IMG/VR virus record: IMGVR_UViG_3300042445_000578
Span: 1 to 57,503 of that record
Reading direction: 5' to 3' (one strand)
Length of the DNA: 57,503 nt
Source: a virus
Lineage: Duplodnaviria; Caudoviricetes
Shown here piece after piece: positions 30,971-56,521 of this stretch (position 1 is its first letter; each line of letters begins with the position of its first letter). The translations under genes were made by a program, and so were the position numbers. A model generated the notes under the pieces. The model had not been told where the DNA came from and did no database searches. It was given only the letters and a program-made list of their open reading frames with translations.

Positions 30971-33411
30971 TCTTTACCCTTTTTGACAGGTTGTTTTTGA
31001 CCTTGTGCTAATTCCTTGCCAATCTTGAATCCCTCAATTTGTTTTTTAAACTCAAGTTCTTCACGATCAACAGCGGTTTTAGCGCCAATTTGCATACCAG
31101 CAATACGTTCTTGCGATTCAATGCGCTCTTTCTCAACCTTGATCTGGTCAGCTTTGGCTGCTGCATCAAGGACGTCTTTCTGCTTCTTACGCAATAACTC
31201 TTGCTCTTCAAGCTGTTGTTCTTTGATTTGCATCTGAATAACAGGATCTTGAGCTGCTTGCTGGGCTTGCTGTGCTGCCACCTCAGTCTTGTTGCGGTTG
31301 AGCAACATGTCAGAGGCTTGAGCTGCCATTTGAGAAATACGGACTTCAAGATCTTTTGGAATCTCGTTTTCGTCTTCTGCATCTGGCAATGGAACGCCAA
31401 TAAGTTGTTCCATTTGTTTCTTATATTCAAAGCCTAAGTGTTCGTTAATGTGCGCCATGGCTGCTGCTTGGATAGCCTGCGCATTTGGGTTTTGACCAAT
31501 TAACTGACCAATCTTAGGATCTTGAATTGCGTTCATATGAACTTGGATATGAGCCTGATGATCTTGGTAGTAGAACGCCTTGACTGGCTTCATATTGATG
31601 ATGTTCATATTCTCTGTAATTGGGTCTTCTGGCTTCTTGTCTTCTTCTAGCTTGACAAGCTTCTCAGCGTTTTTAATACCCAATACTTCTAACATTTGAC
31701 GGTGCAACTTAGCTAAGTTGTATAGCTGTGGCGCTTGCTGGGCTAACTGTAGAACCGCCTGATACTGGACAACCTTCTGTGACATTGTTGCAGCATTAGG
31801 ATCTGACACAGGGATAACGTCCACATTGTCGTAATCAGACTGCTTGGCAAGACGGCTACCTTCTGATGGTTGATAGCTGTATTCTTCTGGCGTGTAGTCA
31901 CGGATGATTCCTTTTAATAGCTTTAACTCTTGTTTCATTGAGTAATGAACACGGGCTTGAACCGCTGACATTACCTTCAAGGTACGCTCTAGGATGGCTA
32001 ATGTTGTACCAACTGGTGAGTTGGCTGACATATCGCTGATCTTCAGGTCGGCTGCGGATGCAAAGCGGCGTCCTTCATCCACAATGGTATTCATCAAGCT
32101 ATAAAGAACTTGGCTTGGCTCTTTGTATGGAAGAGGCAATAAGTTATCTTTTAATGTGCCAGATGGAACGTCTACATCTCGGAATTCGCCTGGGGCAATT
32201 GGTGTATCGTCACCTTTAACACGCATACCACGGGTTTTAAAGCCGCCTGGTAGGTTACTTAGTGTGCCAGCATCAACCAATTGACGGATGATAGATGTGC
32301 CTGACTTAGCAAATGCGCCAATAAGATGGATAAGACCAAAACAGTAGAAACCAAAGCCAGGTACATAGCCGTAATGTACAAAATGTTGGCGTTTTTGCTT
32401 GGTTGAGTCATCTGGGTTCCAGTTTCTGCGAATGGCTAGTACGTTTTGCGTACCTTTTTCAATGGTCACTACGTATGGAAGAGCAATGCCTGTTGGCTCG
32501 CCGTCTTCATCTACATCTTCGTAGCCTGGTAAGTCCAAGTCTACGTGCATTTCTAATAACTTAAAGCGATCATCCGTTGTGGCACGGAATCCCATTTTTC
32601 TTGCAATTTCTTTCTCCACTTCATCCATTGTCATGACTGGATCGCCCAGTTCTATGTCACGGTAGAAACCAGCCACTTGTAAACGGCGCAATTCATTGCC
32701 AGTTTTACGCATTACATGCGTTACACGCTCGGCTGTTTCTAGACTCGATGCTCCGTAAGGAACAATGATGTCTTCAGCAGGTACATAAATTGAGACCTGG
32801 CGCTCAATATGTGGATCGTAATAGACTTTCTTAAATGCGTTACCTGATAAACCAAGTCCCCAGACCATGCGCTCGTGTTCTGGGCGGTATTCTGGCATCA
32901 CATCTGTGATTTGGTAGTTCATGTCGGCTTGAACTCGTTTGGCAGCATCCATTTTTTCTGGAGTTTCTTTGCCAATAATCACTGTTTTTACTGGGCCACT
33001 GGCTGGAAGCGTTTCCATCACAGTTTCCGCTTGGAATTTAACTAAAGCTTCTGACAATAGTGGGTGATAAACGCCACAAGCGCCTTCCCATGGCTCAGTT
33101 CTTTCTTCAATCTTCATACCTAGCAGCTCTAAACCGTCAACATAGGTCTGAATCCAGTCTTTTCTGGCACTGATGTCTGAGTCAACATCCCCAATTAAGT
33201 CATTGGCTAGGCTTGATAGGGTATTTTCATCAATCTCTTCAGCTAAGTTCTTGCTGAATTCATCTTCTTCTTCGCGGATCTCAATCTCTAAACCGTCAAT
33301 AGCAATATTCACTGCCTCTGGGTCTTCAATTTCAATCTCAATGGCTGGTTCAGCATCGTTGATAGCCTCTAAACCCTGAGGGAGTTCGTATAAACTTTTT
33401 TCTATTGACAT
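30967..33411 (-). CDS. Portal protein
   Basis: 814 aa following the terminase; PWEGACGV.HP, GNAFKKVYYD, RQLVDAGTLSNLP. Confidence 0.8.
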   Translation of the reverse strand: MSIEKSLYELPQGLEAINDAEPAIEIEIEDPEAVNIAIDGLEIEIREEEDEFSKNLAEEIDENTLSSLANDLIGDVDSDISARKDWIQTYVDGLELLGMKIEERTEPWEGACGVYHPLLSEALVKFQAETVMETLPASGPVKTVIIGKETPEKMDAAKRVQADMNYQITDVMPEYRPEHERMVWGLGLSGNAFKKVYYDPHIERQVSIYVPAEDIIVPYGASSLETAERVTHVMRKTGNELRRLQVAGFYRDIELGDPVMTMDEVEKEIARKMGFRATTDDRFKLLEMHVDLDLPGYEDVDEDGEPTGIALPYVVTIEKGTQNVLAIRRNWNPDDSTKQKRQHFVHYGYVPGFGFYCFGLIHLIGAFAKSGTSIIRQLVDAGTLSNLPGGFKTRGMRVKGDDTPIAPGEFRDVDVPSGTLKDNLLPLPYKEPSQVLYSLMNTIVDEGRRFASAADLKISDMSANSPVGTTLAILERTLKVMSAVQARVHYSMKQELKLLKGIIRDYTPEEYSYQPSEGSRLAKQSDYDNVDVIPVSDPNAATMSQKVVQYQAVLQLAQQAPQLYNLAKLHRQMLEVLGIKNAEKLVKLEEDKKPEDPITENMNIINMKPVKAFYYQDHQAHIQVHMNAIQDPKIGQLIGQNPNAQAIQAAAMAHINEHLGFEYKKQMEQLIGVPLPDAEDENEIPKDLEVRISQMAAQASDMLLNRNKTEVAAQQAQQAAQDPVIQMQIKEQQLEEQELLRKKQKDVLDAAAKADQIKVEKERIESQERIAGMQIGAKTAVDREELEFKKQIEGFKIGKELAQGQKQPVKKGKE

Positions 33412-36606: not shown

Positions 36607-36648
36607 GAAGTCTGTTGTATCGGTTTAATTAAATAAAAGGGGAATTAA

Positions 36649-36867
36649 ATGAAAGACGAACAAGTGTTAATACAAGCAGTGCGTGTCGTAGCTAATGATA
36701 GATACGATAAGGGTTGGTCTGTGATTGTTGAGTCTTGGACTGATGGCGATATTCTTGAAGTGTTATCAGAGTGCCAGTTTGATTTGTTTAAGACTGTTGA
36801 AGAGCTACAGTCCTATGTTGATGCTTACCTAGACAAGCAAGACGATATTGAATCAACTGCGTTTTAA
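36649..36867 (+). CDS. Small acidic early protein
   Basis: AAGGGG RBS; 72 aa. Confidence 0.7.
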   Translation: MKDEQVLIQAVRVVANDRYDKGWSVIVESWTDGDILEVLSECQFDLFKTVEELQSYVDAYLDKQDDIESTAF

Positions 36868-36884
36868 CCAAAGGGGAAATACAT

Positions 36885-37148
36885 ATGAAAGACTTAGAGA
36901 AAACAATACGAGTAGCTGATAGATTCATGGCAATCACAACTCAAGACTTACCACAAGACCTAGCAGTAGATATCGCTATTCGTTTAGCCTACTGCCACAT
37001 GGATACACCATTGGACTTGGATGCCATGTTAGATACTGATGACCTATTCTCATTCAAGCATGATGTTGTTGGTATCTATAACCATTGGGATAACGATAGC
37101 AAGAAGCTGACTGGATGCTTCATGCCACGATTCGCCCAGTCAATCTGA
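36885..37148 (+). CDS. Early protein (DUF6874-like)
   Basis: PLDLDAML..DD.F.F.HDV.GI..H.D....L..CF.PRFA. Confidence 0.6.
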   Translation: MKDLEKTIRVADRFMAITTQDLPQDLAVDIAIRLAYCHMDTPLDLDAMLDTDDLFSFKHDVVGIYNHWDNDSKKLTGCFMPRFAQSI

Positions 37149-37191
37149 TGATGGCTTGAGTAGCCGAAACAGTCGTAAGACTGTCATTGAC
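37139..37191 (+). ncRNA. Type I hammerhead ribozyme 1
   Basis: GTCAAT-CTGATGA-T-GGCT(TGAGT)AGCC-GAAA-CAGTC(GTAA)GACTG-TC^ATTGAC; all three stems pair; predicted cleavage after C37185 (GUC). Confidence 0.88.
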
Positions 37192-37212
37192 ATAACAAAG
37201 GGGAAAATTATT

Positions 37213-37437
37213 ATGACAAGCAATTATCACAATGCCAGTATGGTTGATGTAGCGACTGCTATCGTTGACCGATTGATTGACAACTACGAAGGCAAAGGCG
37301 AATTCATCACTGAATTCTATGAGCTATCTGAACTGATTGGCAAAGCTATTGCCAACTCTAACCACTTCAATCGCATTGAAGAAATCGCCATGGAAAATGG
37401 TGTTGTTGAATCTGACTACTTTGAAGGGGAAGAATAA
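37213..37437 (+). CDS. Small acidic early protein
   Basis: AAGGGG RBS before ATG 37213. Confidence 0.65.
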   Translation: MTSNYHNASMVDVATAIVDRLIDNYEGKGEFITEFYELSELIGKAIANSNHFNRIEEIAMENGVVESDYFEGEE

Positions 37438-37712
37438 TGGCTAACTGGAAACATGAAATAGATGTTGCTGACTTGTATGCCAAGTATGAGTCTGCTGATA
37501 TTACCGATAGCGAAATGATTAACAGTCTGCACAAGGTGTTTACTGCCTTCATTGATGCTAACCCACAACTCAACGACATTGTTGACTTCTACCGATTCTC
37601 TGATGCCGTTGATGAGCTACTAATCGCTGATGACATTGAAGAAGCTGACTATGCCTTGCAGTCAATCTATGACTTCGCTGATGACAATCGTATTTGGATT
37701 AAAACCTTCTAA
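37437..37712 (+). CDS. Small acidic early protein
   Basis: 91 aa; IYDFADDNRIWI. Confidence 0.7.
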   Translation: MANWKHEIDVADLYAKYESADITDSEMINSLHKVFTAFIDANPQLNDIVDFYRFSDAVDELLIADDIEEADYALQSIYDFADDNRIWIKTF

Positions 37713-37722
37713 GGGGATGATG

Positions 37723-37887
37723 ATGAAACACTTTATTTACTTTTTAAACCTTGCTATTTTTGGTCTGTTTATGCTCTCTATCTATGTGGTATCAGAGAAT
37801 CCCGCACCTTTGTATATCTTTACTTTAATTGCATCAACTGTTGGTCTGTGCCTGATGTTTGCCTTGCACTGCGAAACTTCAGACTAA
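37723..37887 (+). CDS. Small 2-TM membrane protein
   Basis: AAGGGG RBS; two hydrophobic helices. Confidence 0.6.
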   Translation: MKHFIYFLNLAIFGLFMLSIYVVSENPAPLYIFTLIASTVGLCLMFALHCETSD

Positions 37888-37948
37888 CTGATGATGGGGT
37901 GAATCCCCGAAACTGGGTGCATAGCTACAAGTGCATCCAGTCTTAGTC
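37882..37948 (+). ncRNA. Type I hammerhead ribozyme 2
   Basis: GACTAA-CTGATGA-T-GGGG(TGAAT)CCCC-GAAA-CTGGGTGCAT(AGCTACAA)GTGCATCCAG-TC^TTAGTC; predicted cleavage after C37942 (GUC). Confidence 0.88.
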
Positions 37949-37959
37949 AACTGCTAGGA
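37946..37959 (+). promoter_or_regulatory. GTCAACTGCTAGGA leader/RBS element (putative sRNA target)
   Basis: 14-nt perfect complement of the candidate sRNA; includes the AGGA(G) RBS of the ORF at 37967. Confidence 0.7.
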
Positions 37960-37966
37960 GATACAA

Positions 37967-38155
37967 ATGATTCAGTGGTATATCAATTCAAAGCCTGTGC
38001 CTAAAGCTATTGCTAGGGTTCACTTGGAAAACGCCATGCCTTATCGGACTGCAAGAGAGATTGCATCCGCTATGACTGGTGCATTGAAAAAGGATGAATT
38101 CTTTGTCAAGGTATGTGCTGACTATGGCGTGCATTACGCTAACTTAACTCATTAA
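37967..38155 (+). CDS. Early hypothetical protein
   Basis: AGGAG RBS; 62 aa. Confidence 0.65.
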   Translation: MIQWYINSKPVPKAIARVHLENAMPYRTAREIASAMTGALKKDEFFVKVCADYGVHYANLTH

Positions 38156-38165
38156 GGGGAAACTA

Positions 38166-38345
38166 ATGAAATTTATGATTGAAATCCGCACCGATAACTC
38201 AGCGTATGAGCAGTCTTTTTATGATGAGATTATTGCCAACTTGCAACTGGTTATCAGGATGGTTGATTCTCAGTTTAAGGTAGGTGTCATTCACGATACC
38301 AATGGCAACAAGGTAGGCAAATTTTTTACAGTGGAAGGGGATTAA
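38166..38345 (+). CDS. Early hypothetical protein
   Basis: AAGGGG RBS; MKFMIEIRTDNSAY...DTNGNKVG (59 aa, not in ORF track). Confidence 0.65.
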   Translation: MKFMIEIRTDNSAYEQSFYDEIIANLQLVIRMVDSQFKVGVIHDTNGNKVGKFFTVEGD

Positions 38346-38346
38346 C

Positions 38347-38916
38347 ATGGGATGGACTGGTTCACAAAAGTTTGACTCACTGCCAACAAAGGACTGGTTA
38401 GTAAAGGAATTCACTAACGAGTCTGATACTCACAAGTGGGAATTAACGGATGTATCCATGCGTGGCAACACTGCGTATGGCATCCACAAGGTGCAAGACA
38501 AAGCTACTGGGATTATCTTGGCTGAAGCCATCATTATCCTGACTCGCAAAGAGGATGGTTGGCTTTACTTCAAGGAAATGGGGGAAACTGTGCATCCCTA
38601 CTACTATGATGCACCGAAGAAGCTACTGGATAAACTGGATGCTCTCTTTCCACCATTTAATGACAATGCCAAGGCATGGCGTGATGCCTGTCGTGCAAAA
38701 GCCACCAAGAAGAAATCTGCCAAGCTAGTTATTGGGGATGTGGTCAAGTTTGCCAAGCCAATGAGCTTTGGGCAATTCTCTGAGGATACCTTTACCTTTG
38801 AAAGCTACTTTGGTAAGGATTCTTTCAGAGCCACCAATGGTGTGCTATGTCGCATTACCAAGTGGAAGCAGAGGGATTTTGAGGTTTTATCAACAAAAGG
38901 GGAAAGCAATGAATGA
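38347..38916 (+). CDS. Early protein (DUF6927-like)
   Basis: MGW.., KEMGETVHPYYYDAP..LL, AKAWR..C. Confidence 0.6.
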   Translation: MGWTGSQKFDSLPTKDWLVKEFTNESDTHKWELTDVSMRGNTAYGIHKVQDKATGIILAEAIIILTRKEDGWLYFKEMGETVHPYYYDAPKKLLDKLDALFPPFNDNAKAWRDACRAKATKKKSAKLVIGDVVKFAKPMSFGQFSEDTFTFESYFGKDSFRATNGVLCRITKWKQRDFEVLSTKGESNE

Positions 38917-39175
38917 ATTATCAAAGATGAATGAATTGGAGATTGAGGATCACTGGACTAATGAAGCCAGTAGTCTATTACTAGGCAAAAAGATAACTAG
39001 GGTTCGCTATGTAAGCCATAGAGAAGCAGAAGACATGGATTGGACTTCAAGACCTGTTGCATTTATGTTGGAAACTGGTATTTGGTTTTTCGCATCCATG
39101 GATGATGAAGGCAATGATGGTGGTGCGTTGTTTACTTCGCATCCTGAGAAATCAGTCCTTCCAGTGTTGAGGTAA
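38909..39175 (+). CDS. Early hypothetical protein
   Basis: AAGGGG RBS; SMDDEGNDGGALF. Confidence 0.65.
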   Translation: MNELSKMNELEIEDHWTNEASSLLLGKKITRVRYVSHREAEDMDWTSRPVAFMLETGIWFFASMDDEGNDGGALFTSHPEKSVLPVLR

Positions 39176-39177
39176 TT

Positions 39178-39387
39178 ATGAAAACAACGATTAAGGGGTT
39201 TGATTTGTCTGTCGTGGAATTGGATAACGACTCTGTTGCAATCAATTTTGATAAGGATGGTGCAACTGGTGGTTATATCAATATCAAGATGGATGATGAT
39301 GGTGTGGTGGTAGATGTGTTTAATGCCTGTGGGGACTGTATTAGCTCTACATGGTCTTTTTATAACGAACTTATGCAAGGGGAATAA
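39178..39387 (+). CDS. Small acidic early protein
   Basis: GAGG RBS; DDDGVVVDVF. Confidence 0.6.
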   Translation: MKTTIKGFDLSVVELDNDSVAINFDKDGATGGYINIKMDDDGVVVDVFNACGDCISSTWSFYNELMQGE

Positions 39388-39388
39388 C

Positions 39389-39724
39389 ATGGAATTGAAT
39401 CAATTTACTGGGACTGAAAACTATCATAGGTCATGTATGTTTGTGCCTAAGATGGTGCATACGGATGGCGTTGACTACTTCTGCTCTGAAGCCAGTGCCT
39501 ACTGGTTTTTGGATATTGTGGCAACTGAAGTATTTCCATTGCAAGAGGTGGATTACTTCTTGTCAATCAAGATGGTGGTGGCTGATGGCAAAGCCACAAT
39601 CACTGTGGAAGATGGGGACTGCAAGGTTTTAAAGACTAAGAACATTGAATTCACTGACTGCCCTGAAGGGGAGTATGAATTCTTTTTGACTGACAATGTT
39701 TTGATGCTAACTAGCGAATACTAA
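39389..39724 (+). CDS. Early protein (DUF6876-like)
   Basis: QFTGTENY, TDGV, AYWFLD, IEFTD.P, LML.SEY. Confidence 0.6.
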   Translation: MELNQFTGTENYHRSCMFVPKMVHTDGVDYFCSEASAYWFLDIVATEVFPLQEVDYFLSIKMVVADGKATITVEDGDCKVLKTKNIEFTDCPEGEYEFFLTDNVLMLTSEY

Positions 39725-39734
39725 GGGGGACACC

Positions 39735-40181
39735 ATGGGATTAGATATGTATTTAACTGCCAAGCGTTATGTTTGGAATTACAAAGATGAGGACAAAGCC
39801 TTGCAAGACCAACTGGATGATGTGATGAAAGATGATTTATCTGATGGCATGAGAGTCAAAGAAGTAGCGGTAGATGCTTTCTATTGGCGTAAAGCTAACC
39901 ATATTCACAAGTGGTTTGTGGATAACTGCCAAGGGGGTGAGGATGATTGCCAAGAATACTGGGTTGAAGCTAAACAACTGGTGCGACTCAAAGACCTGTG
40001 CGAGTCTGTCTTACTGCAAAAGGATGTGGGCTTATTGCCTACTGCGGATGGCTTCTTCTTTGGATCAACTGACTATGACGATTGGTATTGGTCTGAGATT
40101 GAAGAAACTGTTAAGGGACTTGAGAAAGTATTGAAACTGGATACTGCCAAGTGGGACTTCTACTATCGTGCTTCATGGTGA
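39735..40181 (+). CDS. Conserved phage early protein (MGLDMYL family)
   Basis: MGLDMYL, YWRKANHIHKWF, GFFFGS, FYYRASW. Confidence 0.65.
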   Translation: MGLDMYLTAKRYVWNYKDEDKALQDQLDDVMKDDLSDGMRVKEVAVDAFYWRKANHIHKWFVDNCQGGEDDCQEYWVEAKQLVRLKDLCESVLLQKDVGLLPTADGFFFGSTDYDDWYWSEIEETVKGLEKVLKLDTAKWDFYYRASW

Positions 40182-40186
40182 ATAAC

Positions 40187-40444
40187 ATGGGCAAATACAC
40201 TGTATATGCCTATGATGCCGAGATTGAACTGGGTGGGGAAACCTACTCAGTTTTACTGGGCATTGAGGAAGAAGGACACCCAAGCAATGCCTATGAGGAC
40301 TCATGGTGCGATAACAAGATTTACTACTACATGACTGATGCTGAACTAGCTGAACTCAAGAGTGGTGATGAGCTTGATGAGGGGACTATCTTGTTATCCA
40401 TTGATAAAGACAATCCGACTATCTATGAGGTGGAATATGAGTAA
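40187..40444 (+). CDS. Small acidic early protein
   Basis: Very D/E-rich ORF in operon. Confidence 0.6.
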   Translation: MGKYTVYAYDAEIELGGETYSVLLGIEEEGHPSNAYEDSWCDNKIYYYMTDAELAELKSGDELDEGTILLSIDKDNPTIYEVEYE

Positions 40445-40619
40445 TTTTTACATTGCGTATGCAACATCCAAGGTTTATCACCAAATAAAGGTGGTGGCTG
40501 AATCAGAAGAAGATGCAAAGCGTTTGATTGCTGAAGGCAATTACTATGCTTGGGATGAACTGGATAATGAAGATTTTCAAATACAAGAAGTAATTTTTGA
40601 TGGAGTGCATGATGCCTAA
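40437..40619 (+). CDS. Small acidic protein, DpnD/PcfM-like motif family
   Basis: VVAESEEDAKRL. Confidence 0.55.
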   Translation: MSNFYIAYATSKVYHQIKVVAESEEDAKRLIAEGNYYAWDELDNEDFQIQEVIFDGVHDA

Positions 40620-40797
40620 ATATAGCGTGTTAATGACCACTGCTGACTATGTGGAAGTGGAAGCAACTGATCCAAGGGATGCTGAAATGGTGGCTTGGGG
40701 TATGTATAAGGAAGGCGATATACGACCTGAACACCCTGAGTTTGTTTGTGAAGAAGCCGATTTAATTGAAGGGGATGATGATGGCAATGACCTATAA
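40609..40797 (+). CDS. Small acidic protein, DpnD/PcfM-like motif family
   Basis: MPKYSV..VEVEATDPRDAEMVA. Confidence 0.55.
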   Translation: MMPKYSVLMTTADYVEVEATDPRDAEMVAWGMYKEGDIRPEHPEFVCEEADLIEGDDDGNDL

Positions 40798-41071
40798 ATC
40801 AAATAGAAGTGAAAACCAATGGGACATATGGCATAGCAATGTCAATGGGGATGAAATACTGCATACATTCGCAACTGAAGAAGAAGCAGATTACTACTTG
40901 AAAACTGGTAAAAAACTCATAAGCAAAGCCATGGTGGAAGGATGGCTAGGGTCTGACAACATGAGTGTTGATGATTTTCTTGACCTATTAACTGAAATCA
41001 TCAATGAGGATTATCCATTGGATATCTTCAGAGCTGATGTTTTGGAATTTATGGAGATGGAAAATGCCTAG
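40781..41071 (+). CDS. Small acidic early protein
   Basis: AAGGGG RBS; FATEEEA. Confidence 0.6.
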   Translation: MAMTYKSNRSENQWDIWHSNVNGDEILHTFATEEEADYYLKTGKKLISKAMVEGWLGSDNMSVDDFLDLLTEIINEDYPLDIFRADVLEFMEMENA

Positions 41072-41237
41072 TTTTACTGCGAGTTTTTCAAGTGAAATAA
41101 GAGTATTGATTGATGCTGACACCATAGAACAAGCAGAAGAAATTGCTAGGGAAATGGAATTGAATCATTCAGATTTACAGAAAAACGGAGAACACTGGGG
41201 AACAGTGTTTTACGACATTAACGAATTTGAGGAGTGA
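41064..41237 (+). CDS. Small acidic protein, DpnD/PcfM-like motif family
   Basis: IDADTIEQAEEIA. Confidence 0.55.
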   Translation: MPSFTASFSSEIRVLIDADTIEQAEEIAREMELNHSDLQKNGEHWGTVFYDINEFEE

Positions 41238-41386
41238 TGATGCCGAAGTTTGAGATTACCTACAAGGAAGTAATTGAAGCTGAAAGCGAAGAGCAAGCGA
41301 TTGAGTGGTTATTTGTATATCTAGCTGATTGCTTGAGGGATGATGATGTATCTGTATTTAACTTTTTTGAACTTAAAGGGGAATGA
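41237..41386 (+). CDS. Small acidic protein, DpnD/PcfM-like motif family
   Basis: MPKFEITYKEVIEAESEEQAIEW (not in ORF track); GGAG RBS. Confidence 0.55.
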   Translation: MMPKFEITYKEVIEAESEEQAIEWLFVYLADCLRDDDVSVFNFFELKGE

Positions 41387-45656: not shown

Positions 45657-46486
45657 TATGCTGTTTCCTTTAGTTTTCTTTTAAGTGAATTAACTGTCTT
45701 CATTAGCTCTGCGTTACGGTGCTGAAACATATCTCGGCTTTCACGCAATGATTTGTTATCAATCTCCAAGAGTCTGACTTGCTCACGCAACTCCTTGATT
45801 GTGTCTTCCACATCAATCTTCTCAATTTCTGAAGCATCCCACGCACCAATGGATATTTTGTCTTTGAGAAGGGTGACTTCCTCGTCTAACTGGGTGATAA
45901 CCTCGGTTAGCTCTTTGATTTTGTCTTCTTTCTCGTCATAGGTGGTGACATCAGGCTTGGTGGTTGGCGTTTCACGCTTACCAATGTTGCCAGTCTTCAT
46001 CTCTTTTTCTACACCATCCTTGGTGACAAACTTCTTGGTCTTTGGTTCATCCTTGATTTCCATGGATGCCTTGACTCGGCTGACCATCATGGCTGTTACG
46101 CCAACATGGGCTGCGATGCGAGCCTGTGTCCATTCCTTGTATCTTGGTTCAAGCAACATCTTTCTAACGATTTCTTTGTTGTCTTCTGGTGACATGGATA
46201 AGCCACGATCCTTGTTAGCACCGTAGGAATACTCTTTAGCATCATCCAGTGAGCCTTGGTAGACTTCTGCATCAATAGAAGCAGTGGCATTAGCCTTGGT
46301 AGCATGGTAGCGGTGGAAGCCGTCTGCAAGCCAATACTCTGCACCATCAAAGAATACGGTGACTGGTGGGAATGATGTGCCTTCACGCATGGCTTCTGCG
46401 TAATCTTTAACTACATCGTAGTTAATTTCTTTTCGTGGCTGTGTGCCACCGTCTATACGGATATTAAGAATGTTGAGTGTTTTCAT
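45656..46486 (-). CDS. ParB/Srx-domain protein with HTH and coiled coil
   Basis: TQPR, FPPVTVF, LADGFHRY.A; WTQARIAAHVGVT..MVSRV HTH. Confidence 0.8.
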   Translation of the reverse strand: MKTLNILNIRIDGGTQPRKEINYDVVKDYAEAMREGTSFPPVTVFFDGAEYWLADGFHRYHATKANATASIDAEVYQGSLDDAKEYSYGANKDRGLSMSPEDNKEIVRKMLLEPRYKEWTQARIAAHVGVTAMMVSRVKASMEIKDEPKTKKFVTKDGVEKEMKTGNIGKRETPTTKPDVTTYDEKEDKIKELTEVITQLDEEVTLLKDKISIGAWDASEIEKIDVEDTIKELREQVRLLEIDNKSLRESRDMFQHRNAELMKTVNSLKRKLKETA

Positions 46487-46772
46487 TTGTAGCTCCCATG
46501 CGAACTATGTTGTAAAAGATATTGGATAGTTCTAAAAAAGATTGATTAACGATACGCTCCTTAGGTTTTACCTTTAGATCTTCCAGGCGGAAAGCCCAAG
46601 TTGCCCTTTTACCTACAATGCGACCCTGTGTTCTGAGATAGGTCAAACGACCAGCTGCGGTGGCTGGACTAACCTTCAGAAGGTCTGCAATTTGAGATGT
46701 GGTGACTGCGCCATTTTGAGCAATGGCGTCAAGAATTTTGTCAGTGAATTCCTTGTTTTGCTTACCTGACAT
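46464..46772 (-). CDS. Winged-HTH DNA-binding protein
   Basis: ILDAI..NG.VTTSQIADLLKVS..TA..RLT.L...G.I; GGAGG RBS. Confidence 0.7.
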   Translation of the reverse strand: MSGKQNKEFTDKILDAIAQNGAVTTSQIADLLKVSPATAAGRLTYLRTQGRIVGKRATWAFRLEDLKVKPKERIVNQSFLELSNIFYNIVRMGATNENTQHS

Positions 46773-46814: not shown

Positions 46815-46826
46815 TCCTAGCAGTTG
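46815..46826 (-). promoter_or_regulatory. CAACTGCTAGGA element (putative sRNA target)
   Basis: 12-nt exact copy, 8 nt before the ATG of a 14-aa ORF (46806-46762). Confidence 0.65.
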
Positions 46827-47246: not shown

Positions 47247-47383
47247 TATTTTGATTCCCCCATTAGTTCAATCGCAGCCTGCCATGCTTCCCATGCTGAC
47301 TGGGTATGTGTGTTTGTGAACACGCCATCCTCACGGGTAAGCACATAGTTATGCTCCTTTGCCCACTGTCTAAACTCTTTCAT
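47246..47383 (-). CDS. Hypothetical protein
   Basis: AGGAG RBS; MKEFRQWA...AWEAWQAA (45 aa, not in ORF track). Confidence 0.5.
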   Translation of the reverse strand: MKEFRQWAKEHNYVLTREDGVFTNTHTQSAWEAWQAAIELMGESK

Positions 47384-47489
47384 TTCACTCTCCTGTTTGT
47401 GGACGCAATACGCCCAACGCCAACGCCATTTAGCGCTATATGTAACTCAACATACTTTAGTAACATTAACGCTATATTGATGATATGAA

Positions 47490-47811
47490 GTCAGATTCCT
47501 GGTGGTGAAGACACACCTAGCCTACCTAGATGTGCCTTCAACCGTTGATTCCTGTATGGAGCCTACAGCACCCGACAGTCTTTCGTAGAGTCGGCACTAT
47601 CTTCGCCACCGACATTTGCACTGTTACATCTACTTACCCCCAGTAGTGCTTGAGTAATGATCGCTGGTGTGGTTTTGCCCCGTCCAATCACTACTTCAAT
47701 TGTTAGACGTGATTGACAAAGTGGCAATAACGCATGCCAATAAATGGCACGGTAAGTATTCACATTGTCACTTGGGAATTGTTTCAGTCCCTAAGCACGT
47801 CTAGCAGTTGA
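47490..47811 (-). other. Structured non-coding region (long leader, ncRNA or origin)
   Basis: 15-bp hairpin 47506-47540, alternative GTCGG/CCGAC helices 47572-47613, 16-bp imperfect inverted repeat 47696-47711/47796-47811 with nested stems. Confidence 0.55.
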
Positions 47812-47846
47812 GTTCACAGATTAAATGAAATAAAAATAATTTGCAA
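47801..47846 (-). promoter_or_regulatory. Sigma70 promoter with TCAACTGCTAG at about +1
   Basis: TTGCAA (47846-47841)-N17-TAATCT (47823-47818)-N6-TCAACTGCTAG; same geometry as the promoter at 56109. Confidence 0.65.
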
Positions 47847-47857
47847 CAACTATTTGC

Positions 47858-47893
47858 AAAAAGAAAAAACCCCCAGGGATTAGCTGGGGGTTT
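47858..47893 (-). terminator. Rho-independent terminator
   Basis: AAACCCCCAG-ctaatcc-CTGGGGGTTT followed by TTTCTTTTT on the minus strand. Confidence 0.8.
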
Positions 47894-47984
47894 AGTGGTG
47901 AAGGGGTCACCATGGAGGTCTTGCATTGCACAAGGTCAACTGCTAGGATGCCTAGGCTTGTCGTGGACTTGGAGGTCGTTAGAC
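47860..47984 (-). ncRNA. Candidate trans-acting antisense small RNA (~125 nt)
   Basis: Own promoter and terminator, no ORF on this strand; contains TCCTAGCAGTTGAC (antisense to the repeated leader element), GACCTCCA x2 and hairpin GGTGA-CCCCT-TCACC. Confidence 0.65.
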
Positions 47985-47990
47985 ACACTA

Positions 47991-48020
47991 AATATAGCAG
48001 AAATTCTTAACACCTGTCAA
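47991..48020 (-). promoter_or_regulatory. Sigma70 promoter of the candidate sRNA
   Basis: TTGACA (48020-48015)-N18-TATATT (47996-47991) with extended -10 TG. Confidence 0.7.
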
Positions 48021-48045
48021 CCTATAGTGTTTGTCAAGTAAATAT

Positions 48046-48333
48046 TTACTTAATGCCGACTTTTTCATTATCAAACAGCCAGCCTACCGTCTTTCTATGG
48101 GCGTTTTCCCATAGTTCTTCCCTTTCAGCCTTTGATAAGTCTTTACCCTGATCGAGATCCATGTGGCATTTGTAGCAGAGCGCTGCGATTCTATAGTCAT
48201 GTGCCTTGATGCCACGGCCTTTGCCATCCCTAAGCTGGTTACTGTGCGCTGCAACAATCGTTCCATCTTGTCTCCCACAATGTTGGCATGGAGACTGCCG
48301 AACAATCTCCAATAGTTTCTTATTTCTATACAC
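48046..48333 (-). CDS. DUF1364/YbcO-like His-Cys nuclease
   Basis: PCQHCG, AAHSN, GKG.GIKAHD, LCYKCH; probable GTG start at 48333. Confidence 0.65.
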   Translation of the reverse strand: MYRNKKLLEIVRQSPCQHCGRQDGTIVAAHSNQLRDGKGRGIKAHDYRIAALCYKCHMDLDQGKDLSKAEREELWENAHRKTVGWLFDNEKVGIK

Positions 48334-49096
48334 GCTGTAAAGCCCCACTGAAGATGTATGTGCCAGTATGGGATAACTGAACCCAAGGCGCGGCATGAAC
48401 CTTGAAGCCATGAGTTCTAGCTAACTTACAAAAGTGATAGTCCTCAGATAACAGACGGTTATTGGATTCAGGGTCAATACTTGTGGCAAAGTATTCTTTG
48501 ATAATCTTTGGCTTACGCTCAGTGTCTACAGCCAGATACATATCACTGTTGTATTCAGGCACTTTATCAGCCAGAGCCTCAAACACTTCACGTTTAATCA
48601 ACATAAAGCCTGTGCCACCGTTTTGAATCTCTAATAGCTCACTCATCTTTACTTCTTGGCGTTCTTCTTTGACCAAGTTCACCACGAATGTGCCTGTATG
48701 GTCTTTTAACTGGTCAGCAGGTACACCTCTGTTTACCGCATCAGCTACACGTTGCCAATGGATTTCCTTTTTGGGGTACAAGCCACAACAAATATCTACA
48801 TCACGTCTAACCATCTCGATGATGTCGTTTGGATTGAAACCAATGTCTGCGTCAATAAACATTAAATGGGTAGCGTCTGAGGCTAAGAAATCATATGCCA
48901 AACTGTTTCTAGCACGGGTAATCAATGACTCATTCATCATGTAGGTGTAATACATGCGAACCCCAGCCTTGCTACAGATCATTGGTAGCTGCATAAGCGC
49001 AGCCGTATAGTTACCAATGCACATACCGCCATACATGGGGGTAGCTACAAATAGTGCTGGTGATTTAATCGTTGGTTTCTCGTTGTTTTCGCTCAT
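48326..49096 (-). CDS. GT-A fold glycosyltransferase-like protein
   Basis: VATPMYGG, ESLITRARN, LMFIDAD, GTGFMLIKR.VF, LSEDY.FC, H.G. Confidence 0.75.
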   Translation of the reverse strand: MSENNEKPTIKSPALFVATPMYGGMCIGNYTAALMQLPMICSKAGVRMYYTYMMNESLITRARNSLAYDFLASDATHLMFIDADIGFNPNDIIEMVRRDVDICCGLYPKKEIHWQRVADAVNRGVPADQLKDHTGTFVVNLVKEERQEVKMSELLEIQNGGTGFMLIKREVFEALADKVPEYNSDMYLAVDTERKPKIIKEYFATSIDPESNNRLLSEDYHFCKLARTHGFKVHAAPWVQLSHTGTYIFSGALQRV

Positions 49097-49110
49097 TTTG
49101 CTCTCTTTCT

Positions 49111-49770
49111 TCACGTTGTTGATCTTGCGGTGTCATTTCTAAATCTTTCATCCATATTGTCGTAACCTGTTCCAGACCCCCACAGATGACGAGAAAAGTG
49201 ATGACCTGTAACTTTAGTTTCGTAACCAGAGTGATGCTCTGGCATAAAGAAGTGAGAAGGATACACTGTCAGATTGGCTTGCTTCTTAAAAAATACTTCT
49301 GTTACTAGCATTGGGCCAGTAATCATCCATGCCAACTTCTTCTCATTGCAGTCTTTGGTAGCTACCTCTTCCATACATAACTTCAAGGCTTCAGCACCAG
49401 GAACTGATCCCATCACCGTATTGGCGATTAAGTTATTGCGAACAATCTCTTGCTCCCAACAGGCAAAAGCCTCACAGTTAAGTAGCCAGTCTTCCAATGG
49501 CTTAACGCAGTAAGTATCCGCATCAATATAGATGCCACCATGCTCGTAGAGGATTTCATAACGCATCACGTCACTAGCGCCAGCAAAGTCTTTCTTAATA
49601 AGCATGTCATGGAGTTGGCGGTAGTTCTTCCAGTTTGTACCTTGGACTTGGTTATTGCCCCAGACTCTTACCTCGTAGTCTGGGTTCTTCTTAATCCATG
49701 TATCAATACAAGCCACTGGCTTCTTAGACTGATCGCCTATCCAGATAATGTGAATGAGTTTAGGTATCAC
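49111..49770 (-). CDS. Glycosyltransferase, GT32/OCH1-like (DXD)
   Basis: IPKLIH.IW.G, SDV.RYEILYEHGGIYIDAD. Confidence 0.85.
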   Translation of the reverse strand: MIPKLIHIIWIGDQSKKPVACIDTWIKKNPDYEVRVWGNNQVQGTNWKNYRQLHDMLIKKDFAGASDVMRYEILYEHGGIYIDADTYCVKPLEDWLLNCEAFACWEQEIVRNNLIANTVMGSVPGAEALKLCMEEVATKDCNEKKLAWMITGPMLVTEVFFKKQANLTVYPSHFFMPEHHSGYETKVTGHHFSRHLWGSGTGYDNMDERFRNDTARSTT

Positions 49771-55067: not shown

Positions 55068-55948
55068 ACCAACTCCTTTCCACTGTTGTAATCTTTCCAT
55101 TGGCTACAGAAATCCCGTACTTGGCAGAAGTTGGCGCAACGAGTACGCTCCCCTGGTCTTATTTCTATTTCATACTCATCGCTGAGTTCCTTTAGGGCTT
55201 CAATGGCATAGTCCTCTCGGTCATATACCTTCTTAGCCTTGATACCGCCCCTCTTCTTGATCGCCCAAGTGGTAGGCTTTTCCCACATCTCTGACGGAGT
55301 GCAGTCAGGTAAGTCACCATCAGTTTCCATGGCGAACTCACAAGCACTATGCAATGCCACCCTTTTAGAGATAAACTGTTCTCGCTCGTCAAACGACCAC
55401 AGTTTGATAGGGATTTCTTTGACTGGAGCTTCTGGATAACCCTCTTTCGTAGCGGCTTCTCTACGATTCCAGTCACGAATCAACCCAACGATACCTACTG
55501 AACTAACGGTCTGCTTCTTGGCACGTTCAATTAACCATGCGTAGATGTTGAGTTGCTGTTCCCACTCAATCTTCTCGTTCATCATTGCCCAAGCAGATGT
55601 AGTCTTATAGTCACGAATGTCAATCGTGCCATTAGAGTTAACGATCTGTAGGTCAATAGCTCCTGAGATGTGCCAACCGTCATGTTCCACATGGATACGC
55701 TGTTCCACCACATGGTTGCCATCCTTGCCATGCTCAAGAATGTTGTGCATTGCTGAACCGAATAGCGACCAAATCATGTCGGCTACATCCTGTTCTAGCT
55801 CTTCATCAAACTTCTTGGTCAAAGCAACGATTTTTGGGCTATTCAACAGCTGAGTCGCTGAGATATTAGCCTTACCTTTGCTGTAAGTAGGGCGTTCCAA
55901 GACATTCATGAACGTCTGTGGGATGCCATACTTATTGGTTAGTTTCAT
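55064..55948 (-). CDS. PD-(D/E)XK (Cas4/RecB-like) exonuclease
   Basis: SATQL, GSAMH, ISGAID, IRDYKTT, QLNIY, RC..FC.V..FC. Confidence 0.8.
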   Translation of the reverse strand: MKLTNKYGIPQTFMNVLERPTYSKGKANISATQLLNSPKIVALTKKFDEELEQDVADMIWSLFGSAMHNILEHGKDGNHVVEQRIHVEHDGWHISGAIDLQIVNSNGTIDIRDYKTTSAWAMMNEKIEWEQQLNIYAWLIERAKKQTVSSVGIVGLIRDWNRREAATKEGYPEAPVKEIPIKLWSFDEREQFISKRVALHSACEFAMETDGDLPDCTPSEMWEKPTTWAIKKRGGIKAKKVYDREDYAIEALKELSDEYEIEIRPGERTRCANFCQVRDFCSQWKDYNSGKELV

Positions 55949-56049
55949 TCAATTCCCCTTTCAATAAATGATTTAGCGCACCGCATGGCAACAACCACAA
56001 TGGCTACTGGCAACAATACAGCGGTAACGATACCGACAATTACTCTCAT
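55945..56049 (-). CDS. Small membrane peptide (34 aa)
   Basis: MRVIVGIVTAVLLPVAIVVVAMRCAKSFIERGIE; ATGA overlap with the exonuclease. Confidence 0.5.
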   Translation of the reverse strand: MRVIVGIVTAVLLPVAIVVVAMRCAKSFIERGIE

Positions 56050-56061
56050 TAAATTTTCCTT

Positions 56062-56109
56062 TCCTAGCAGTTGAGACTCTAGATTACTGCTTGTTTAGGG
56101 GTATGTCAA
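56062..56109 (-). promoter_or_regulatory. Sigma70 promoter with TCAACTGCTAGGA at about +1
   Basis: TTGACA (56109-56104)-N17-TAATCT (56086-56081)-N6-TCAACTGCTAGGA. Confidence 0.75.
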
Positions 56110-56170: not shown

Positions 56171-56521
56171 ATGCACATTCAACTCCAACTACCATACCCA
56201 CCCTCTGTCAACCATTATTGGGGACAGTCTGGCAACCATCGGTTCATCGGCAAGAAGGGCAAAGAGTTCAGGGCTATGGTCATGGATGCGGTCAATGAGG
56301 CTGGAATACAGCCCCTAGAAGGCCGTTTAGCGGTGCATATAGCACTCTTCCCCCCAGACAAGCGTAAAAGGGACGTGGACAACGTTTTAAAGAGTTTATT
56401 AGATGCCTGCGAGCATGCTGGCTGCTATGAGAACGATAACCAGATAGATGAATTACACGTTATTCGACAGGAAATAATCAAGGGCGGGGCTTGCACAATT
56501 GTGATTCTGCCAATAAACTAG
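56171..56521 (+). CDS. rusA: Holliday junction resolvase RusA
   Basis: LPYPPSVNHYW, PPDKRKRDVDNVLKSLLD, YENDNQIDEL. Confidence 0.92.
   Translation: MHIQLQLPYPPSVNHYWGQSGNHRFIGKKGKEFRAMVMDAVNEAGIQPLEGRLAVHIALFPPDKRKRDVDNVLKSLLDACEHAGCYENDNQIDELHVIRQEIIKGGACTIVILPIN

Follow-up and report, generated by a model that had tools for sequence, protein, structure and literature searches.

A putative antisense small RNA gene upstream of the replication module of a freshwater phage and its relatives

Described RNA regulators and the phage locus

Phages P1 and P7 each make c4, an antisense RNA that is cut from an operon transcript (RNase P) and acts in lysogen immunity, and whose specificity in the two phages is set by compensatory differences between the small RNA (sRNA) and its target. 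Plasmid replication is controlled by cis-antisense, fully complementary RNAs in the ColE1 RNA I/RNA II pair and in pT181-type attenuation; CcsR/Cuckoo, AbcR, RsaE/RoxS and the Betaproteobacteria toxic sRNA RF02278 are anti-Shine-Dalgarno sRNAs with C-rich loops; and phage T4 encodes RegB, a protein endoribonuclease that cleaves GGAG. The element analysed here is a putative sRNA gene on the minus strand of the viral contig IMGVR_UViG_3300042445_000578, which in its whole length of 57,503 bases (about 90% complete, about 43% G+C) forms the window of this study. The c4 operon arrangement and antisense role are described, citing Citron & Schuster 1990, in the excerpted part of PMC8198154, and the phage sRNA examples in the excerpted part of PMC12197685 are mostly cis-antisense RNAs of temperate phages or RNAs acting on host genes. 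Few phage sRNAs are known to regulate genes of their own phage in trans.

We read the locus, with a probability of roughly 0.6, as the gene of a trans-acting antisense sRNA of a freshwater phage, acting like P1 c4 or P4 CI. As in those systems, a phage sRNA lies upstream of its candidate target on the same strand, and the complementarity is short, partly bipartite and directed at the leader or ribosome-binding site (RBS) of the next transcription unit; as between P1 and P7 c4, compensatory sRNA and target differences are found among related phages. In contrast to c4 and CI, the window sRNA has no Rfam match to the C4 family, has its own promoter and terminator where c4 is processed from an operon transcript, and carries a seed that also matches several distant RBSs. 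Its cognate target is a non-coding leader before a structured RNA rather than an antirepressor operon, and no integrase or repressor was found among the window proteins scanned, which gives no sign there of an immunity circuit.

The ColE1 and pT181 systems resemble the locus in that an RNA of about 100 nucleotides (nt) with three hairpins would bind a longer structured RNA, encoded next to replication genes, in its 5' part, with refolding of the downstream RNA expected during transcription and specificity evolving by paired changes. They differ in that the window sRNA is adjacent to its partner, on the same strand and only partly complementary to it; the origin and primer role belongs to ColE1, and the structured RNA downstream of our sRNA, the Betaproteobacteria-1 RNA, is compared by position only. 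With T4 RegB the locus shares a phage-encoded device directed against the Shine-Dalgarno sequences in one particular class of mRNAs made by the phage itself, although the device here would be an RNA recognising a longer motif by pairing and RegB is a protein nuclease.

The C-rich-loop anti-Shine-Dalgarno sRNAs are a loose analogy only. Like them, the window sRNA is a stand-alone RNA with C-rich unpaired motifs able to occlude G-rich RBSs (two CCUCC and one CCCCU), but its conserved element is a non-loop seed, CCUAGCAG, and its candidate targets are the phage's own leaders. An initial annotation of this DNA, made from the letters alone, had likened the RNA to Cuckoo/CcsR and AbcR and had proposed an Rfam search. 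In that search the sRNA reached the gathering score of no model in Rfam 15 (C4 antisense RNA, Cuckoo/CcsR-type, AbcR and RF02278 included), so the analogy does not amount to membership. The best scores under permissive filters were 19.0 for NsiR1 (threshold 39), 18.8 bits for RF02278 (50) and 18.4 for ctRNA_p42d (50), in alignments that fall mainly on the sRNA terminator.

Anatomy and conservation of the sRNA gene

The minus-strand letters read exactly as the initial annotation gave them, and its call of a stand-alone minus-strand sRNA gene holds: the promoter and terminator are confirmed and conserved, and the hairpins covary in relatives (Table 1). Both promoter hexamers, the TG of the extended -10 and the T-tract are kept in a 21-sequence alignment. 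The probable transcript, of about 120 nt, runs from near 47984 into the T-tract; with its own promoter, a Rho-independent terminator and no conserved open reading frame (ORF), the gene appears to be an independent transcription unit. No other terminator-like site is present in 47300-48300. Three hairpins and the terminator hairpin make up the predicted fold (-36.2 kcal/mol), and as a single-sequence fold it modestly beats shuffled sequences (z -2.44; 4 of 200 shuffles fold equally well). A 41-amino-acid (aa) ORF at 47801..47926, starting within CCAUGG, was considered as a peptide gene and rejected, its ATG being absent from relatives.

For comparison, 49 related viral loci were collected via the helicase, and a covariance model was built on 17 homologues. 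The model detects a single copy per source, located in every case upstream of the helicase and on its strand, in the window as well as in 31 of the 49 loci; 25 of the 31 score above 80 bits and six score 26-34 bits. A sequence pattern of the conserved core is present in 44 viral contigs. In a second set all 43 sources had one match each, yielding 37 distinct sequences, in whose alignment 95.8% of cells are paired and 14 of 23 pairs are changed on both sides, the alignment having been fitted to the model, which favours the structure. Covariation of this extent was reached by none of 500 shuffles, and sliding the pairing partners by 1-3 columns left 33-54% of cells paired.

All cells of the terminator stem are paired, with changes on both sides at 7 of its 10 pairs. 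In 29 of the 37 distinct sequences hairpin 1 has at least four stem versions (GUCAG/CUGAC, ACCAG/CUGGU, CCAAG/CUUGG and CCAGU/ACUGG) around a C-rich loop, and the stems of hairpin 3 fall into two types, GGUGA/UCACC and GGAUC/GAUCC, that differ on either side at three positions; the hairpin 1 sequence of the window itself is an outlier among its relatives. The C-rich linker reads GCCCUCGG, GCCUCGG or GCCCACGG in relatives and CACCUCCU in divergent forms. Hairpin 2 keeps a U-G pair in 35 of the 37 sequences, which marks the minus strand of the window as the transcribed one. We conclude that the RNA represents a genuine phage sRNA family, conserved and not filed before.

The same U-G pair bears on a plus-strand, GGA-rich CsrA/RsmA sponge, an alternative that the initial annotation had already disfavoured. 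The plus strand does carry four GGA motifs across the unit, and a promoter-like site at 47813-47840 points into it; that site, however, lies in the AT-rich promoter P2 described below and its hexamers are not conserved, the scan of 47300-48300 found no plus-strand terminator, and the U-G pair and other G-U pairs would become A-C mismatches on that strand. We give this reading practically no credence.

Two further kinds of match to the sRNA were seen. Matches of 11-13 nt to the invariant hairpin 2 (UUGCACAAG...) are scattered in the window (30997-31008, minus strand) and in related loci L021 (6533-6545), L008 (11762-11773) and L044 (13380-13390), and are probably due to chance or shared ancestry. 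In one sub-lineage the sRNA terminator loop (CUCACACUCCU) is complementary over 10-11 nt to the RBS AGGAGUGUGA(A/G)gAUGccuaa of one conserved gene (Table 1), a possible extra module in an unusual place.

Seed, ribosome-binding sites and the adjacent leader

The stretch CCUAGCAG between hairpins 1 and 2 is near-invariant in the 37 distinct homologues and reads UCCUAGCAGUUGAC in the window. The four longest exact complements of the sRNA in the whole window outside its own gene, of 14, 13, 12 and 11 nt, map without exception to sRNA nt 43-56, each of them on the sense strand of a leader, bearing out the 11-14-nt seed for four phage leaders that had been annotated; one unrelated 12-nt complement ties the third-longest. 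Random 14-mers had as many places of at least 11 nt in the window (five, the sRNA gene included) in only 3 of 4000 trials. A Shine-Dalgarno sequence is covered at three of the four sites; the remaining one forms the 5' terminus of the P2 transcript. Site a begins 4 nt past a predicted hammerhead cleavage site; site b is the Shine-Dalgarno sequence of a strongly hydrophobic 34-aa ORF (56049..55945) at the head of the exonuclease/Erf module; and site c precedes a 14-codon upstream ORF and a winged-helix gene (46772..46464) at the head of the ParB-like/helicase/primase module. The three minus-strand sites each lie 5-6 nt past a -10 hexamer, with a -35 hexamer at 17 nt, and therefore at the very 5' end of their transcripts. 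None of the target genes received a PHROG annotation.

This sRNA segment also has matches in 15 of 16 relatives, at 1-6 sites apiece that take the form (A)ACUGCUAGGAG. The 21 sources examined together have 85 distinct CTGCTAGG sites, and 20 of these are the sRNA genes themselves; 51 of the other 65, a figure that includes homologous, non-independent sites of related phages, precede by 2-14 nt a start codon with an ORF of at least 30 aa, compared with 18.6% of random positions. The divergent lineage L020/L046 has the core UCUCCUAGCGG, and its RBSs at 4-5 sites read CCGCUAGGAG, so that CAG in the core has become CGG where CUG in the targets has become CCG. A 13-nt match precedes a start codon in L017. 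The mean unpaired probability is 0.66 for the core across the family and 0.45 for the whole RNA. The sRNA family thus appears to carry a conserved seed that is accessible and that complements the RBS, or its close vicinity, in several mRNAs, although accessibility of the window copy is low (0.25), and the concerted changes, in the core in L020/L046 and in the seed flank and leader described below, suggest compensatory evolution of seed and target. The annotated view of a central seed antisense to phage leaders and RBSs stands, with sRNA and targets co-varying.

Base-pairing sRNAs block 30S binding when their duplex covers the Shine-Dalgarno sequence and lies no more than about 20 nt from the start codon, a geometry that three of the window sites have. 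A trans-acting antisense repressor is the best reading. From the anatomy, conservation, complementarity and co-variation of the element we infer its transcription, its pairing in vivo, the repressive sign and the timing. Host RNA polymerase would make the RNA of about 120 nt from the near-consensus promoter and stop at the intrinsic terminator, and the RNA would expose the conserved (C)UCCUAGCAG between hairpins 1 and 2. This seed would pair with the motif CUGCUAGGAG near the 5' end of several phage RNAs, a few bases past the promoter start or just after a hammerhead-like cleavage site. As the motif contains the Shine-Dalgarno sequence, pairing would block ribosome entry, and the duplex would probably be exposed to RNase. 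The regulon would be a small set of repressed phage messages, with the 5' arm of the non-coding P2 leader as the strongest and phage-specific partner; sRNA bound to this arm while the leader is still being transcribed would release the 3' arm and alter the folding or survival of a 5' untranslated region (UTR) of about 430 nt.

The position of these sites also invites a reading at the level of DNA, in which a phage protein, for example the winged-helix protein of 46772..46464, binds CAACTGCTAGGA at the starts of transcription units, the copy in the sRNA gene being one more operator and the RNA pairing incidental. The fixed distance of three window sites from the -10 hexamer (5-6 nt), the placement of one site ahead of a helix-turn-helix gene and the concerted change in L020/L046, which changed protein specificity would also explain, all accord with it. 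Many sites, however, lie within operons behind hammerhead-like elements and not at promoters; the sites as a whole almost all stand on the sense strand, 5-9 nt ahead of a start codon (51 of 65), and the complement falls exactly in the unpaired stretch of a structured RNA. An operator would also have no need of the pair-specific complementarity of 17-25 bp between seed flank and leader, which is different in every phage and absent from the other sites. We regard an operator as very unlikely.

The partner that the initial annotation missed is the co-evolving leader of the adjacent transcript. P2, a second conserved promoter in a conserved alignment block, was read from the sequence; a consensus promoter scan missed it. 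The 5' arm of its leader begins about 50 nt downstream of the sRNA terminator in the window. For the 25-35 nt between hairpins 1 and 2, a long and often bipartite duplex with the leader (-24 to -42 kcal/mol) is possible in each of the 22 distinct loci tested; the target starts 31-50 nt after the sRNA end in 20 loci, 80 nt after it in L006 and 135 nt after it in L002. The 5' flank of the seed region pairs with the neighbouring P2 leader only, and the flanks differ from phage to phage, on the sRNA and leader sides together. Duplex energies average -31.8 kcal/mol for cognate and -21.9 kcal/mol for non-cognate pairs, the observed mean was reached in none of 20000 permutations, and the own leader ranks first for 17 of 21 sRNAs. 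In the closest relative, L002 (92% helicase identity), both flanks are replaced compensatorily, with CCUGAUUUUUCC in the sRNA and GGAAAAAUCAGG in the leader as against GCCUAGGCAU and GUGCUUAGGG in the window.

The Betaproteobacteria-1 RNA (Rfam RF02932) lies 168 nt downstream of the sRNA on the same strand in the window, and in 16 of the 18 related loci scanned it is found 95-167 nt past the sRNA (86.8-100.4 bits). The scan of 47300-48300 found no terminator 3' of it in the window, which places it in a UTR of about 430 nt, from P2 to the ORF start at 47383, ahead of the replication module. Betaproteobacteria-1 goes unmentioned in the main text of Weinberg et al. 2017 (PMC5737381), the motif being described in the supplements. 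Past the Rfam 3' end, conserved sequence and hairpins run on for at least about 70 nt, to about 47480 (GCUGUGGCUCC..., then a GGCGCAC.../...GUGCGU hairpin), and the natural element may be longer than the Rfam model. A CUAGG-bearing hairpin after the Betaproteobacteria-1 RNA was considered as a second binding site and rejected: its motifs pair with each other, and L040 lacks them.

The leader could instead serve as a decoy, titrating the sRNA off the CUGCUAGGAG RBSs when P2 fires and so acting as a timer rather than a repressed target. Its ORFs are tiny and not conserved, and its Shine-Dalgarno-like AGGAG is therefore kept with no evident coding use; its complementarity of 17-25 pairs goes far beyond the 10-14 nt of the RBS targets; and it adjoins the sRNA gene in every locus examined. 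Masking of the decoy segment by the leader 3' arm would be needless for a sponge, however, and the joining of the leader to the conserved Betaproteobacteria-1 RNA in 16 of 18 loci suggests control of what follows. A decoy therefore seems unlikely to us.

The two complementary arms lie about 125 nt apart on one strand beside the replication module, and their co-variation fits pairing in cis as well as in trans. They could accordingly belong to a single transcript that reads through a leaky terminator, the sRNA being the 5' part of the Betaproteobacteria-1 UTR and seed and leader forming a long-range helix, or to a single-stranded DNA or cruciform element near an origin. Against such pairing in cis, a strong covarying terminator with its T-tract and a conserved -35/-10 pair stand between the arms, the leader has a cis partner of its own in its 3' arm, the seed also matches distant sites on both genome strands, and the G-U pairs fit RNA of one strand. 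We consider this arrangement highly improbable.

Several observations weigh against a trans-acting antisense repressor. An inverted repeat acting at the level of DNA, or a protein operator that changes, would yield the co-variation of sRNA and leader just as well. The covariance model has no match in 18 of the 49 related loci; eight of these have less than 2.4 kb of upstream flank and ten have enough, and since the loci are related, the counts given here are not independent events. Two loci, L007 and L024, the weakest of the six weak model matches, have no matching targets. The window's own core has an unpaired probability of 0.25 and is predicted to be mostly paired because CUAGG and CCUAG form a local hairpin. 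The leader 5' arm is likewise masked: a long hairpin of 5' with 3' arm is predicted in all seven leaders folded, at -9 to -40 kcal/mol, and pairing with the sRNA would therefore have to be co-transcriptional or assisted. An energy-only RNAduplex scan of the window with the 40-nt seed did not single out the RBS targets and placed the P2 leader 7th among 14366 windows, counting the gene itself; this ranking was set aside in favour of contiguous complements, as G-rich coding stretches score like the true leader. Finally, among sequencing runs, searched as contigs only, two recorded as RNA have no contig over the sRNA. Contigs of these two runs cover 151-nt pieces at 47425-47575 and 47612-47762, in the Betaproteobacteria-1 region, and another lies at 48165-48300; a run only guessed to be RNA has a relative's contig spanning 47716-47958. 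These contigs neither show nor exclude expression of the sRNA.

A wider proposal, which we regard as possible though on balance improbable, is that the sRNA, the self-folding P2 leader and the Betaproteobacteria-1 RNA make up a switch built of RNA alone, which would gate the replication module in freshwater phages that appear to be virulent. The 5' arm would be caught as it is transcribed and the 3' arm freed, and the UTR of about 430 nt would refold, much as RNA I acts on RNA II of ColE1. Through its phage-specific flank each phage would answer its own sRNA, a heteroimmunity or incompatibility determinant, and the invariant core would let the abundant sRNA of a resident phage silence the hammerhead-processed early messages of superinfecting relatives. 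If so, the switch would provide the first functional context for the orphan family RF02932 and a case of RNA-based exclusion outside lysogeny; the literature searched contained no account of this sRNA, nor of any sRNA linked to RF02932. A single circuit would join the new sRNA to two further RNA elements, the Betaproteobacteria-1 RNA, itself an orphan, and the hammerhead-like processing sites just ahead of the targeted RBSs. The sRNA family occurs in dozens of uncultured lake-phage contigs, its candidate target set can be read from sequence, and the lineages provide a natural series of compensatory mutations. Because the pairing rules are explicit, reporter testing would be possible without culturing the host, and the family might be of use as a set of orthogonal RNA regulator-target pairs.

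Table 1. Features of the sRNA locus and its candidate targets; positions are those of the window unless a related locus is named
Feature	Position	Strand	Description
sRNA promoter	47991..48020	-	TTGACA, 18-nt spacer, TG-n-TATATT (extended -10); 11/12 matches
sRNA unit	47862..47990	-	Covariance model R1, 81.6 bits, E about 5e-16
Hairpin 1	47960..47984	-	Loop CUCCAA holding first GACCUCCA copy (47970-47977)
Antisense (seed) region, between hairpins 1 and 2	47935..47970	-	Core UCCUAGCAGUUGAC at 47935-47948
Hairpin 2	47920..47934	-	CUUGUGCAAUGCAAG, near-invariant across family
C-rich linker	47913..47920	-	Second GACCUCCA copy
Hairpin 3	47897..47911	-	GGUGA-CCCCU-UCACC, predicted fold
Intrinsic terminator	47864..47893	-	10-pair stem and T-tract, at 47893..47867 in the terminator scan
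Promoter P2	47818..47846	-	TTGCAA, 17-nt spacer, TAATCT
P2 leader 5' arm, putative cognate sRNA target	47785..47812	-	11 contiguous pairs and 9-pair second helix; -32.0 kcal/mol
P2 leader 3' arm	47702..47711	-	CACGUCUAAC; pairs in cis with 5' arm; ends just before Betaproteobacteria-1 RNA
Betaproteobacteria-1 RNA (RF02932)	47570..47694	-	97.4 bits, gathering score 49.4
Candidate target site a	37946..37959	+	GUCAACUGCUAGGA, 14 nt; overlaps Shine-Dalgarno of 62-aa ORF 37967..38155
Candidate target site b	56062..56074	-	UCAACUGCUAGGA, 13 nt; 5-6 nt past -10 of TTGACA-17-TAATCT
Candidate target site c	46815..46826	-	CAACUGCUAGGA, 12 nt; few nt past -10 of TTGACG-17-TAAACT
Fourth site, P2 leader start	47801..47811	-	11 nt
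Hammerhead-like three-way junction	37882..37942	+	CUGAUGA ... GAAA ... UC^; just upstream of site a
Second hammerhead-like element	37139-37185	+	Between early genes
Terminator-loop complements	L041 7306-7315, L044 12911-12920, L004 11133-11143, L043 9670-9679		10-11 nt, in one sub-lineage
CUGCUAGG sites without ORF	L004 9317, L010 6232, L012 9341, L003 6136, L044 11405	+ (of loci)	

C-rich modules, hammerhead-like elements and genomic setting

The initial annotation went further and proposed a three-module anti-RBS regulator, with CCUCC directed at GGAGG, the CCCCU loop at AAGGGG and the seed at CUAGGAG, perhaps on host mRNAs too. The 8-nt CCUCC repeat is present as claimed: GACCTCCA occurs twice in the window, both times within the sRNA unit. 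Two copies per window are unremarkable (1.32 expected; 36 of 100 shuffles reach two), and it is their position that stands out. The repeat is, however, private to this phage (GACCUCCA occurs twice in this RNA only) and is not kept even by the closest relative. In relatives the loops are of CCCACA type and the linker reads GCCCUCGG or GCCCACGG. The annotated early AGGGG class of RBS is real. AAGGGGA occurs 14 times in the window where 5.9 are expected, a count reached in none of 100 shuffles, and 12 of the 14 lie on the plus strand at 36637-41382, just upstream of the start codons of small early genes, as an RBS class specific to the phage; the motif heads at least eight early genes. To this class the CCCCU loop is indeed complementary, but the match is limited to a minority of lineages and is no feature of the family.

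Further points speak for the C-rich modules. Complements of the CCCCUU loop precede 12 ORF starts where 3.5 are expected; the phages of the five CCCCUU-bearing sRNAs have 8, 3, 2, 2 and 1 AAGGGG RBSs; in each phage the loops of hairpin 1 and hairpin 3 have a motif in common (29 of the 37 sequences covered); and a C-rich linker is kept throughout the family, as CACCUCCU in divergent forms. The CCCACA and ACACAC loops of most family members, on the other hand, have complements that are not enriched at RBSs (0-3 observed, 1-3 expected), GCCUCG accompanies the CGAGGC RBS in only two of the seven phages that use it, and G-rich 5-mers are enriched ahead of genes anyway. The CCUCC and CCCCU modules may be lineage-specific additions or coincidence, and the full three-module regulator is doubtful enough that we rate it quite unlikely. 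Relatives use other stereotyped early leaders; eight L040 genes, for example, start after ..AACCACUAAGCACGAGGCCACAAAAUG.

Hammerhead-like elements recur beside the motif that the seed of the proposed antisense sRNA would recognise. The segment 37878-37952 folds into a three-way junction (-28.1 kcal/mol, z -3.87), and a descriptor of our own (CUGANGA, stem II, GAAA, stem III, UH, stem I open) gave 23 matches in 631,641 bases, 21 of them outside the window in L002-L044, and none in each of five shuffles. In 21 of the 23, CUGCUAGGAG and a start codon follow within about 12 nt; in the second window element and its L002 counterpart an AAGGGGA RBS follows instead. Nine of the 23, both window elements included, have one extra base between core and stem II. 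The Rfam hammerhead models gave no match at gathering, none at E<=1 on 6.8 kb of the early module and none at E<=10 on 121 bases. With the hammerhead core and three stems present and no Rfam call at gathering, we treat these elements as predicted ribozymes. Clustered hammerhead ribozymes in phage and prophage operons are described in the excerpted part of Perreault et al. 2011 (PMC3088659), where one haloviral hammerhead lies 13 nt ahead of a start codon. As there, the elements are interspersed with short phage genes and would divide a polycistronic RNA into fragments the length of a gene; they differ in not being called by Rfam and in their link to a motif matched by an sRNA (21 of 23), of which that part of PMC3088659 has no description.

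The motif CUGCUAGG also occurs with no ORF behind it, right after a bidirectional terminator where the helicase/primase genes meet the early module, in five related loci (Table 1).

Searches for the sRNA itself covered phage, viral and bacterial sequences. A blastn search with the 600-bp region found no match in 50,697 phage records, no exact 24-mer was found among viral contigs, and 185,579 bacterial species genomes contained no copy of the sRNA beyond one chance-level match. That pattern match, in a Sulfitobacter metagenome-assembled genome, was rejected as a true copy (8.6 bits, E 0.36; by our own estimate about three such matches are expected by chance). Sequencing-run contigs place the DNA in lake and freshwater metagenomes, and the only taxonomic hint is the neighbouring RNA family named after Betaproteobacteria.

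The window is arranged in three blocks: structural genes on the minus strand from 36.3 kb down to 1, small early genes on the plus strand at 36.6-43.2 kb, and, again on the minus strand (57.5 down to 43.2 kb), a module for recombination and replication. The last contains an exonuclease, Erf, two glycosyltransferases, an HNH/DUF968 protein, a winged-helix protein, a ParB-like protein, a helicase and a primase. Within it the sRNA sits in a stretch of 660 bp with no genes, between the HNH gene (end 48046) and a small ORF (start 47383). The glycosyltransferase-like genes (49111-49770 and 48326-49114, both minus strand) lie immediately upstream of the HNH gene and the sRNA, and one of the two has a DXD sugar-binding region (Gly_transf_sug, 1.2e-15). 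At 56171-56521 on the plus strand, a 116-aa ORF, which we take by eye from its sequence to resemble a RusA-type resolvase, is divergent from a 34-aa ORF at 55945-56049 on the minus strand.

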